Shown here in pieces: positions 49,335 to 51,743 of a stretch of DNA of 64,000 nt. The stretch is from Alphaproteobacteria bacterium. Its GTDB lineage: Bacteria > Pseudomonadota > Alphaproteobacteria > UBA7879. The stretch's first letter is position 1; every line of letters begins with the position of its first letter. The translations under genes were made by a program, and so were the position numbers. Under the pieces are notes generated by a model. That model ran no database searches. It saw nothing but the letters and a program-made list of their open reading frames with translations, and was not told where the DNA came from. The stretch is from positions 55,789 to 119,788 of the forward strand of contig PKTP01000010.1 in assembly GCA_002869105.1 (NCBI GenBank), written 5' to 3'.

Positions 49335-51743
49335 TTGCATAGCCGCATGTCTTGCGATAGAAGTAAGATTAAAATGATGACTCAGCTTTTAAACCGACTT
49401 GCAATTATCTGTGGGGGCCCTTCAGCCGAAAGGGGTATTTCTCTTAATTCAGCGCGATCTGTTGTTGATCATCTCACCCCACTTATTGAGCAAATCCGTC
49501 TTTTTTATGTCGCGCCCGACTTAAAATTTTACCAGCTTTCGCCGGTTCACTTGTATTCAAATACGCCCATGGATTTTGATTTTAAGCTTGAAACCATCGC
49601 CCAGGCACTTTCTGAACAAGAGTTCGTTCAAAGCCTCAAAGAAGTTGATTTGGTTTTTCCAGCCATTCACGGCACGTTCGGAGAAGATGGCGCTCTCCAA
49701 GGGTTGCTGGAACAGAATCAGATTCCCTACATCGGTCCTTCAAGTGAGGTCTGTGATAGAATGTATCACAAGCCAAACGCTCGTAAAGTTTTGGAAAAGA
49801 CCGGATTTCCAACCTATCCTGTTTTAGAGCTCACTAAAAATGATCCAAATCAAGCGCAAAAAATCCACCGTTTTTTTGACACGCATCAGTTAGACCGCGC
49901 CGTGGTAAAGCCTGCTGCTGGTGGATCTTCCATCGGGGTGATGTCGGTACAATCTCCCATGCACGCAGCGCAGGCTGTGCAAACTATTTTTACCGAAAAG
50001 CTGTGCGATCAAGCCTTGGTTGAGCCCTTTTTCAAAGGCAAAGAATTTACCCTGATTGTCCTTCAGAACAGGCGGGGAAAACCCGTTGCTCTGGTACCCA
50101 GTCAAATTCAGATCAGTTACGATCAAAATCAACTGTTTGATTATCGCCGCAAATATTTGCCCACGGCGAACACCCACTGGCTTTGCCCGCCCCAGTTTGA
50201 GGATGCGACGATTGACAAAATTCGGCATCTTGGCGAACAGTTATTCACCGCTTTTGGAATGCGGGACTTCACCCGGATGGATGGCTGGCTGCTCGAAACG
50301 GGGGAAATTCTGTTTACAGATTTTAATCCGATCAGCGGCATGGAACAAAACAGCTTTATTTTTCAGCAAGGCGCGTGGATGGGGCTTTCACACCAAGAGC
50401 TGTTAGCCTATATCATCACCCACGCCTGTCAGCGGTATGGCCTCACGTTCAAACACCCCTCCATACCAAATCGTCCCAAAAAATCAGTTGCTGTATTAAT
50501 GGGGGGCAAAACAGCTGAAAGACAAGTTTCCTTGATGAGTGGGTCAAATGTCTGGCTCAAGCTCCGTCAATCAACCATCTTCAAACCCACGCCTTTTTTC
50601 TTAGGTTCTGATCAAACAGTTTGGTCTCTGCCCTACCCTTATACGCTGAGTCACACGGTGGAAGAGATTGAAGATAAATGCCAAAACTTTAAGGATCAAA
50701 CAGCTAAAATCCAACCGTTTCAACAAAAAATTCGCCAGCAACTCGGCTTAGATCCGCTGCCTCTTTTAACCCCCACAAAATACACCCTCTCTGATTTCTG
50801 CACGCACATCAAAACAGATTATGATTTTCTTTTCCTGGGCCTCCATGGTGGCATTGGCGAAGATGGAACGTTGCAAAAAATCCTAGACAGCCACACCATC
50901 GCCTACAATGGATCAGGCCCTGAAGGCGCTGCCATCTGCATGGACAAAAACAAAACAGCAGTATACGTCAATCAAGCTCAGATCAAAGATGTCTCGGCCC
51001 TAGAAAAAGTCATCTTTGATCCACGAACAGAAGATCTCAGCCCCTACTGGCAAAAAGCCAAAGACCAGTCCCCAGATGCACAGGCCTTTATTGTGAAACC
51101 ACAGTCAGAAGGATGCTCAGCAGGCATTGTGGTTCTTGCCTCGCTTAATGATTTATGTCGGTATTGTCAGTTAATCAAAGAAGGGCACACCGTTGCACCT
51201 GCCCATACTTTTCCTCATCAACCGATTGAAATTGAATTGATGTCAGATCCCCATCAACAGTTGATGTTAGAGCCCTACATTGACGTTGACATCATCGTCA
51301 TGAAAGATCATCAACTGTCTCATACCCCGGGTACAGGATGGCTGGAACTGACCATCGGCATCCTTGAAAAAGATGGGAAATATCACGCTTTTAATCCCAG
51401 TATCACGGTTGCTGCTGAAAAGGTTTTATCCCTTGAAGAAAAATTCCAAGGAGGAACCGGCATTAACCTCACGCCCCCGCCTGAAACCTTGATCAAAGAG
51501 TCAAAACAGGCATCAATCAGAAATAAACTTGAAGAGGTTGCCAAAAGCTTAAAGATTCAAAATTATTGCCGCATTGATTTCTTCTACAACATCCACACCG
51601 ATCAACTCATCATTATCGAAGCAAATTCACTGCCGGCCTTAACGCCTTCAACGGTGATTTATCATCAGGCCCTTGCCGAACCAAATCCCATATCCCCGTT
51701 ATCATTCATAGAACACCTGATCCTCTCCAAACCATTCGTTTGA
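49335..51743 (+). CDS. Tandem-duplicated D-alanine--D-alanine ligase-like ATP-grasp protein (two complete Ddl-like modules in one 802-aa polypeptide)
   Basis: Module 1 (about 14-390) has LAIICGGPSAERGISLNSARSV, AIHGTFGEDGALQGLLE, and DFTRMDGWLLETGEILFTDFNPISGM. Module 2 (about 395-802) has VAVLMGGKTAERQVSLMSGSNV, GLHGGIGEDGTLQKIL, and YCRIDFFYNIHTDQLIIIEANSLPALT. Both retain the Ddl C-terminal R-x-D...E-x-N catalytic region. Confidence 0.7.
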   Translation: MHSRMSCDRSKIKMMTQLLNRLAIICGGPSAERGISLNSARSVVDHLTPLIEQIRLFYVAPDLKFYQLSPVHLYSNTPMDFDFKLETIAQALSEQEFVQSLKEVDLVFPAIHGTFGEDGALQGLLEQNQIPYIGPSSEVCDRMYHKPNARKVLEKTGFPTYPVLELTKNDPNQAQKIHRFFDTHQLDRAVVKPAAGGSSIGVMSVQSPMHAAQAVQTIFTEKLCDQALVEPFFKGKEFTLIVLQNRRGKPVALVPSQIQISYDQNQLFDYRRKYLPTANTHWLCPPQFEDATIDKIRHLGEQLFTAFGMRDFTRMDGWLLETGEILFTDFNPISGMEQNSFIFQQGAWMGLSHQELLAYIITHACQRYGLTFKHPSIPNRPKKSVAVLMGGKTAERQVSLMSGSNVWLKLRQSTIFKPTPFFLGSDQTVWSLPYPYTLSHTVEEIEDKCQNFKDQTAKIQPFQQKIRQQLGLDPLPLLTPTKYTLSDFCTHIKTDYDFLFLGLHGGIGEDGTLQKILDSHTIAYNGSGPEGAAICMDKNKTAVYVNQAQIKDVSALEKVIFDPRTEDLSPYWQKAKDQSPDAQAFIVKPQSEGCSAGIVVLASLNDLCRYCQLIKEGHTVAPAHTFPHQPIEIELMSDPHQQLMLEPYIDVDIIVMKDHQLSHTPGTGWLELTIGILEKDGKYHAFNPSITVAAEKVLSLEEKFQGGTGINLTPPPETLIKESKQASIRNKLEEVAKSLKIQNYCRIDFFYNIHTDQLIIIEANSLPALTPSTVIYHQALAEPNPISPLSFIEHLILSKPFV

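Follow-up and report, generated by a model that had tools for sequence, protein, structure and literature searches.

A predicted bacterial counterpart of the plant tandem D-Ala-D-Ala ligase in an alphaproteobacterial genome

Relation to the tandem D-Ala-D-Ala ligases of plants and algae

The D-Ala-D-Ala ligase of plants (DDL) has been described as a fusion of two DDL units (PMC9954125). In moss, the knockout of the ddl gene leads to the loss of D-Ala dimerization and to giant chloroplasts (PMC9954125; also PMC9434261, PMC7432710). The peptidoglycan precursor detected in this moss is an Ala-Ala pentapeptide, and both vancomycin and D-cycloserine give a division phenotype (PMC9434261). The same work reported that the moss enzyme is closest to Fibrobacteres-Chlorobi-Bacteroidetes homologs (PMC9434261), and another role has been suggested for the DDL of Arabidopsis (PMC12681378). 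Here we describe a gene coding for a protein of this two-unit type in a stretch of 64,000 nucleotides from the genome of an alphaproteobacterium of the lineage UBA7879 (assembly GCA_002869105.1, contig PKTP01000010.1, positions 55,789 to 119,788), referred to as the window in what follows. Full-text literature searches found no published work on a tandem Ddl from bacteria.

Judging from its sequence, the window gene is a bacterial representative of the family of plant-type tandem DDLs (PpDDL of Physcomitrium patens, At-DDL of Arabidopsis). We place it there because the DDL of the angiosperm Forsythia ovata (P0280) is homologous along the full length (792 aligned positions, 41% of them identical), agrees with the window protein in all 33 signature positions tabulated for the two modules and shares an identical 19-mer, LSLEEKFQGGTGINLTPPP, which was also found in one Parachlamydiaceae protein. 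The plant and green-algal enzymes have, like the window protein, two Ddl units in one polypeptide, and the insertion motifs LYSNTP.DFDFKL and HT.EE...C are invariant in all of them. The signature pattern of the Forsythia protein was repeated in MurF-fused, Parachlamydiaceae and algal proteins, and a divergent 882-aa (amino acids) subgroup retained the Cys, Phe and Thr of module 2 that are described below. Two long matches with SAP domains are green-algal DDLs, from Myrmecia bisecta (P0225) and Tetraselmis astigmatica (P0232), and module 2 of the window protein matches green-algal DDLs with E-values of ~1e-63 to 1e-64. A homolog search with the algal protein was dominated by low-complexity matches and recovered one plant protein. 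The eukaryotic versions differ from the window protein, which is the compact bacterial form, by their N-terminal extensions, presumably targeting sequences, and the algal ones also by the added SAP domains and by long low-complexity insertions. In a rough tree no clear sister group appeared that could be the bacterial donor of the plant DDL; plants and algae formed their own branch, with a flat 40-42% identity to Candidate Phyla Radiation (CPR) bacteria, Bdellovibrionales and Chlamydiae.

The two halves of the protein were scanned separately with Pfam, and the pair of domains Dala_Dala_lig_N and Dala_Dala_lig_C was found twice, always above the gathering cut-offs (34.6 and 24 bits, respectively). 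The N-terminal half reached 83 bits for the N domain and 95 bits for the C domain, and the C-terminal half 70 and 42 bits, the latter from a partial match (84-183 of 204). With TIGR01205, the NCBIfam model for Ddl (cut-off 245.65), the whole protein scored 315.2 bits, and the best stretch (aa 21-364) was module 1. Both modules share ~20% identity with each other. For the comparisons at the level of the locus we used the best 80 relatives, ranked by similarity to the Holosporaceae-like query, and in all 80 loci the two-module open reading frame (ORF; at least 782 aa) was uninterrupted. In addition, the AlphaFold2 model, obtained with an alignment of 121 sequences, was compact, showed two modules and had a high confidence (mean pLDDT 92.8, pTM 0.91). 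The tandem architecture is thus genuine, neither a product of chance nor an assembly artefact. Foldseek superposed each half on solved Ddls with target-normalised template modelling (TM) scores of 0.8-0.88, and found no solved structure that spans both modules (query-normalised TM ~0.36). Each module has the three-domain ATP-grasp fold of the canonical single-module Ddls, such as E. coli DdlB (2dln/1iov) and the DdlA-type enzymes (3q1k, 3i12, 3tqt). These have the full set of catalytic residues in common with the window modules, and module 1 passes the curated Ddl model, but the window protein carries two modules per chain.

The original prediction had proposed two Ddl-like modules in tandem, and a Ddl-Ddl rather than a MurC fusion, and both proposals were borne out. 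Chlamydiae are known for a MurC-Ddl fusion (NF011171), which resembles the window protein in being an ~800-aa fusion with a Ddl module that belongs to the peptidoglycan precursor pathway. However, Pfam detected no Mur-ligase domain in the window protein, and the score with NF011171 was 146.4 bits against a cut-off of 1015, with a match restricted to positions 453-790, the Ddl part of the profile, so that a MurC-Ddl bifunctional protein was rejected. The motifs attributed to both halves are present in both, their exact form in module 2 only (GGKTAERQVSL, HGGIGEDGTLQ and RIDFF...EANSLP). In module 1 they read GGPSAERGISL, HGTFGEDGALQ and RMDGW...TDFNP, with an Asp at the position of the Mg ligand Glu270.

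Catalytic and substrate-site residues of the two modules

Residues were mapped onto E. coli DdlB, the reference sequence of which was checked as identical to PDB 1iov/2dln, and their conservation was followed by aligning 120 full-length homologs (~50% identity) to the window protein (n = 121); the residue counts given below refer to this alignment. The equivalents of E15, H63, E68, K97, K144, S151, E180, E187, K215, R255, D257 and N272 were invariant in both modules. In module 1, S150, Y216 and S281 were invariant as well, and the triad Glu15-Ser150-Tyr216 is completely kept (E32, S198 and Y274). The fixed changes of this module are Phe for L282 and the conservative replacement of the Mg ligand E270 by Asp, which distinguishes it from the canonical Ddls. 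Module 2 keeps E270 and has Cys594 for S150 in 121 of the 121 sequences and Phe704 for Y216 in 120 of them, together with four other fixed changes, namely L217 to Q705, Y210 to L698, S281 to T773 and L282 to V774. These Cys, Phe, Thr and Val residues at Ser150, Tyr216, Ser281 and Leu282, and an insertion of ~70 aa, separate module 2 from the canonical enzymes. The Cys at position 594 was likewise found in the plant, algal, MurF-fused and divergent 882-aa forms, and the omega-loop signature LSLEEKFQGGTGINLTPPP was invariant or nearly so across the alignment. The mean pairwise identity within the family was 55% for module 1 and 50% for module 2. Module 2 is therefore conserved about as well as module 1 and is no decaying duplicate; this candidate explanation was rejected, all the ATP-grasp catalytic residues being invariant across the homologs.

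Each module has a conserved segment of its own. In module 1 the motif LYSNTP.DFDFKL aligns to a gap in DdlB, with Y74, S75, N76, P78, D80, F81 and K84 invariant, and the segment that contains it (PVHLYSNTPMDFDFKLE) was found in plant and algal DDL too. The insertion of module 2 aligns to a gap both in DdlB and in module 1 and bears the motif W..LPY.Y.L.HT.EE....C (WSLPYPYTLSHTVEEIEDKC in the window protein), in which Y434, L438, H440 and E444 are invariant and W430, P433, T441, E443 and C449 show a conservation of 90% or more. AlphaFold2 predicts this insertion as helical with high confidence, and it is conserved in the Forsythia DDL.

The Phe at the Tyr216 position of module 2 is also found in LmDdl2 of Leuconostoc (PDB 1ehi), a D-Ala-D-lactate ligase that was among the best structural matches retrieved by Foldseek. 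In lactic acid bacteria it is the presence of Phe or Tyr at this position that decides between depsipeptide and dipeptide ligase activity (PMC5996685). The D-Ala-D-lactate ligases of these bacteria are single-module proteins, unlike the window protein, whose module 2 has furthermore a Cys for Ser150. None of the Van-type or D-Ala-D-Lac models of NCBIfam (NF000206, NF000207, VanA/C/G etc.; cut-offs of 495-775 bits) was matched above its cut-off. The best score of this kind for the whole protein was that of VanG (184 bits vs 495), and module 2 gave 66 bits at most.

Genomic context, natural fusions and distribution

ORFs were called and clustered in the 80 loci plus the window flank (n = 81), and the identities of the neighbours were established by Pfam or NCBIfam. 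No neighbour of the tandem gene was universal, the commonest cluster appearing in 13 of the 81 loci. The recurrent neighbours confirmed in this way were MurC, MurB, FtsQ, FtsA, MurF and alanine racemase; the assignment of FtsZ and LpxC is by visual inspection only. The order murC-murB-[tandem]-ftsQ-ftsA-ftsZ was found in two loci (L004, L036) and partially in three more (L063, L031, L008), and in another seven (L012, L015, L016, L017, L018, L030, L062) the tandem gene adjoins ftsQ-ftsA. In the division and cell wall (dcw) clusters of these relatives, the tandem gene sits in the usual ddl slot. A murF gene lies directly downstream in L038, where it was scored with NCBIfam, and its cluster-mates are placed likewise in L043, L061 and L066, while L028 has a truncated MurF-like gene upstream. 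Alanine racemase was located at most two genes away in eight loci, six of them labelled as CPR, the others being L077 (Gammaproteobacteria) and L080 (Rickettsiales). A separate ddl within 10 kb was not found in any of the 81 loci, and the tandem cluster has exactly one member per locus. We also looked for a conserved operon partner that would point to a new pathway; there was none in the 81 loci, the recurrent neighbours being all ordinary dcw or peptidoglycan genes.

Natural fusions were found as well. Protein P0136 (1262 aa) joins a tandem Ddl to MurF, and P0200 (1638 aa) joins it to MurF and alanine racemase; their MurF parts scored 323 and 357 bits, respectively, against a cut-off of 288.6. 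Together, neighbours and fusions place the protein in the branch formed by Alr, Ddl and MurF, which supplies D-Ala-D-Ala. P0200 contains three consecutive steps of the D-Ala branch within one polypeptide. Further fusions of the tandem Ddl, among P0234 (1262 aa) and P0158 (987 aa), involve a PASTA domain and an N-terminal GNAT acetyltransferase domain.

Among the 121 aligned proteins, 22 have 880 aa or more, and 17 of these carry an N-terminal helix-turn-helix (HTH) domain of the XRE/HigA-like type (PF01381/PF12844) fused to the tandem Ddl (P0014, P0016, P0017, P0030, P0035, P0046, P0049, P0052, P0056, P0060, P0066, P0069, P0070, P0080, P0095, P0114 and P0119; also positions 8001-10703 of locus L081). 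The HTH-fused forms may be ligand-sensing autoregulators. The name "HigA family addiction module antidote protein" that NCBI gives to some of them stems from the small HTH domain. The contig of P0119 also has a gene of the CT021 family, which we take, from its name, to be of Chlamydia type.

The distribution of the fusion was surveyed by scanning one genome per species with two family-specific peptide patterns, one of them LSLEEKFQGGTGINLTPPP, and the tandem gene proved to be widespread, with at least 600 stretches matched and confirmed relatives in at least 588 species-level genomes. The best 80 loci cover the full length of the window protein with 44-70% identity. Their metagenome-assembled genomes (MAGs) are labelled as Holosporaceae, Rickettsiales, Micavibrio and other Alphaproteobacteria, Gammaproteobacteria/Thiotrichales, Parachlamydiaceae, Bdellovibrionales, Opitutia and many Patescibacteria (CPR); a homolog retrieved separately (P0044) has a Legionellales label. 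By these labels, the carriers among the best 80 belong mainly to host-dependent, predatory or epibiotic lineages. The labels Thiotrichales, Gammaproteobacteria and Rickettsiales within the CPR clade look like mis-binning or mislabelling. The closest of the 80 is locus L001, from Holosporaceae UBA7879 (70% identity). Its neighbours are those of the window gene, so that the window organism is probably a relative of the Holosporaceae. An exhaustive phmmer search with module 2 alone gave 269 representative clusters (50% identity) at E<=1e-30, nearly all of proteins of ~800 aa in which the C-terminal half holds module 2. In a rough neighbour-joining tree the sequences group by taxon, which fits a long vertical inheritance, as for a housekeeping gene. 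The idea of a mobile or lifestyle gene that had recently spread horizontally was rejected, since the tree follows the taxa and the composition around the tandem gene is unremarkable. No curated family model covers the tandem. In public databases its members go under "hypothetical protein", under "D-alanine--D-alanine ligase" (JGI) or, in the case of the HTH-fused forms, under the incorrect name "HigA family antidote".

Some relatives depart from the common pattern. Six proteins of 404-450 aa (P0126, P0128, P0169, P0201, P0212 and P0227) contain no module but module 2. In P0128 and P0169 the sequence is clearly cut off by the end of the contig, and P0126 has as its first residue a Met at the boundary between the modules, so that some genomes may carry the two modules as separate genes. 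A divergent subgroup of tandem Ddls (P0275, P0236, P0252 etc.) has ~870-920 aa and ~30% identity to module 2. In P0275, a low-GC-looking sequence, the omega-loop reads LSLAEKFLAGEGKNITPVV, with the Cys, Phe and Thr retained. This subgroup might correspond to the Fibrobacteres-Chlorobi-Bacteroidetes homologs mentioned for the moss enzyme (PMC9434261).

The coordinates of the features are collected in Table 1. The ORF of the tandem gene spans 49335-51743 on the forward strand (802 aa), with TTG as the first possible start and the stop TGA at 51741-51743. Its real start is probably the ATG at 49374, giving a protein of 789 aa that begins with MMTQLL, because the database protein P0001 (98% identical, 789 aa, N-terminus MMTQLL) and the homologs begin there. 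The linker fills the stretch from where the module 1 match ends to the first strand of module 2, and it is poorly conserved in the consensus. Scans for promoters and terminators gave matches at chance level only.

Table 1. Position of the tandem ligase gene, its parts and its neighbours in the window
Feature	Position in the window	Residues	Strand	Basis
Patatin-like phospholipase (PF01734), 456 aa, divergent from the tandem gene	47848-49218		-	
Tandem D-Ala-D-Ala ligase gene	49374..51743		+	ORF call; start from P0001 and homologs
Module 1, canonical-type Ddl (N, central and C ATP-grasp domains)	49395..50438	21-368	+	
Module 1 motif PVHLYSNTPMDFDFKLE, segment without counterpart in E. coli DdlB	49542..49592		+	Alignments
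Short inter-module linker GLTFKHPSIPNRPK	50439..50480	369-382	+	
Module 2, divergent Ddl-like ATP-grasp module with insertions	50481..51725	383-797	+	
Module 2 N-domain insertion, ~70 aa, with the conserved motif WSLPYPYTLSHTVEEIEDKC	50607..50825		+	
Module 2 phosphate-loop region KPQSEGCSAGI; Cys594 replaces DdlB Ser150	51096..51128		+	
Module 2 omega-loop signature LSLEEKFQGGTGINLTPPP; Lys703 = DdlB K215, Phe704 = DdlB Y216	51426..51482		+	
DsbA-like Thioredoxin_4 protein (PF13462), 259 aa	51780-52559		+	

Further downstream, visual inspection suggests that an F-type ATP synthase operon begins in the ORFs at 52510-54229, with atpI, atpB and the gene of a b-type subunit. The arrangement of genes around the tandem gene in the window is shared with Holosporaceae UBA7879 (L001). 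The largest ORF of the window is at 26102-30868 on the forward strand (1588 aa).

Proposed function and significance

On balance, we favour the view that the window gene codes for the D-Ala-D-Ala ligase of the organism in the plant-type tandem form, with two ATP-grasp modules of the Ddl family per chain, module 2 being a second active site and the whole a probable pseudo-dimer. The D-Ala-D-Ala ligase activity is predicted by analogy, from the gene context and fusions of the relatives and from moss genetics, and the protein would most likely be the housekeeping Ddl of the organism, perhaps its sole one. An ordinary role in the cell wall is suggested by the position in the ddl slot, the adjacency to murF and alr and the fusions to MurF and Alr in the relatives, together with the membership in the plant DDL family and the genetics of the moss enzyme. 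Module 1, with its canonical Glu15-Ser150-Tyr216 triad, would carry out the standard reaction: ATP would phosphorylate the carboxylate of the first D-Ala to an acyl-phosphate, which the amine of the second D-Ala would attack, giving D-Ala-D-Ala, ADP and Pi, and the dipeptide would then pass to MurF to complete the UDP-MurNAc-pentapeptide. Module 2 appears to be an ancient and strongly conserved paralogous module. We infer that it is a second working site, and not a dead one, because it retains all the residues that bind ATP, Mg and the transition state. Its pocket would be remodelled on the acceptor side, where Cys, Phe, Thr and Val take the place of Ser150, Tyr216, Ser281 and Leu282. Ordinary Ddl works as a homodimer, so that module 2 is probably also the fixed dimer partner of module 1, the two packing as a single-chain pseudo-dimer.

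Several points weigh against this proposal. The literature searches found no enzymology for bacterial members of the family or for the separated modules of any organism. Module 2 alone scores 127.9 bits with TIGR01205, under the cut-off of 245.65, and its triad positions are E395, C594 and F704, that is, two of the three residues are changed. No cell-wall gene adjoins the window gene, the 64-kb window contains no dcw gene, and in Chlamydiae the tandem protein may be a second Ddl.

The low score of module 2, its partial match to the Pfam C domain, the loss of Ser150 and Tyr216 and the large insertions would all be expected if this module were non-catalytic, a structural or regulatory pseudo-enzyme that binds nucleotide or D-Ala-D-Ala (e.g. 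for feedback control) and stabilises module 1 as its permanent dimer mate, with the product made by module 1 only. We regard this as unlikely, since K97, K144, E180, E187, K215, R255, D257, E270, N272, E15 and H63 are invariant in module 2 across the 121 sequences and the plants, which is hard to explain without catalysis, and since it is nearly as well conserved (50%) as module 1 (55%). A tentative suggestion, somewhat easier to entertain, is that module 2 could be catalytically active as a ligase but differ in its chemistry or substrate, as determined by the fixed pocket of Cys594, Phe704, Gln705, Thr773 and Val774 and by the conserved HTVEE insertion; the module itself is conserved from CPR bacteria and endosymbionts to angiosperms. 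A specific form of such a proposal, in which module 2 makes a different product (D-Ala-D-lactate, D-Ala-D-Ser or another D-Ala-D-X) and the cell has two kinds of termini or a second metabolite, seems decidedly unlikely to us. It is favoured by the Phe that 120 of 121 sequences carry in place of Tyr216, the residue that decides the activity in lactic acid bacteria (PMC5996685), and by the changes of Y210 to Leu and L282 to Val, which would enlarge the acceptor pocket. Yet the moss precursor is an Ala-Ala pentapeptide and the division phenotype is obtained with vancomycin and D-cycloserine (PMC9434261), all the Van-type and D-Ala-D-Lac models stay far under their cut-offs for module 2, and the fusions and neighbours indicate the Alr-Ddl-MurF branch only.

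The surroundings of the gene in the window, free of peptidoglycan genes as they also are in L001, and the other role suggested for the Arabidopsis DDL (PMC12681378) could be accommodated by an accessory ligase outside the cell wall (e.g. for D-amino-acid detoxification or for a small peptide product), with a conventional ddl elsewhere in the genome. This is improbable when set against the relatives, in which the tandem gene replaces ddl in position within dcw clusters, adjoins murF or alr and is fused to MurF and Alr; in none of the 81 loci was a second ddl found within 10 kb. Moreover, dcw genes are often dispersed in the reduced genomes of endosymbionts. The original prediction had gone in another direction, to a departure from canonical peptidoglycan precursor synthesis and to a possible tripeptide or oligo-D-amino-acid product. 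The departure finds no support, in view of the ddl slot, the murF/alr adjacency and the fusions of the relatives, the membership in the plant DDL family, and the D-Ala dimerization and Ala-Ala precursor of moss. That the two modules act in series to give a tripeptide or oligo-D-Ala is hardly credible: apart from the fact that one chain holds two active sites that both look competent, nothing was found in its support, the context provides none, a dipeptide is what the MurF partner uses, and moss has a normal pentapeptide as precursor. We thus return to the tandem protein as an ordinary D-Ala-D-Ala ligase with two sites as the reading to be preferred.

The original prediction named a fusion that was both widespread and previously characterised as grounds for its own refutation, and this largely applies. 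The tandem Ddl occurs in at least 588 species genomes and was already known from plants, where the two-unit architecture has been described and the moss enzyme has been characterised genetically. What is new are the bacterial counterparts, which were unnamed and unstudied. A double Ddl is no sign of exotic cell-wall chemistry; it would be the normal Ddl of many bacteria, for the most part with a host-dependent, predatory or epibiotic life if the MAG labels of the 80 best relatives are taken as a guide. The plant DDL, the origin of which has been described as non-cyanobacterial, gains compact bacterial counterparts with identical signature residues, and these bacterial tandem Ddls could be tractable models for the second DDL unit. 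An annotation gap is also exposed, as the proteins are found under the names "hypothetical" or "HigA family antidote".

Ddl is the target of D-cycloserine. A second, differently lined and conserved active site would matter for the design of inhibitors against Chlamydia-like or Rickettsia-like organisms, and also for the reading of the effects of D-cycloserine on plants. If module 2 had indeed a chemistry of its own, the Ddl step in all the lineages that carry the tandem protein, plastids included, would consist of two chemically distinct sites, one of which might, for instance, yield another D-Ala-D-X or a depsipeptide, or use ATP to drive an editing or regulatory reaction. This would also help to explain why DDL is retained in Arabidopsis, which does not have a complete peptidoglycan pathway.

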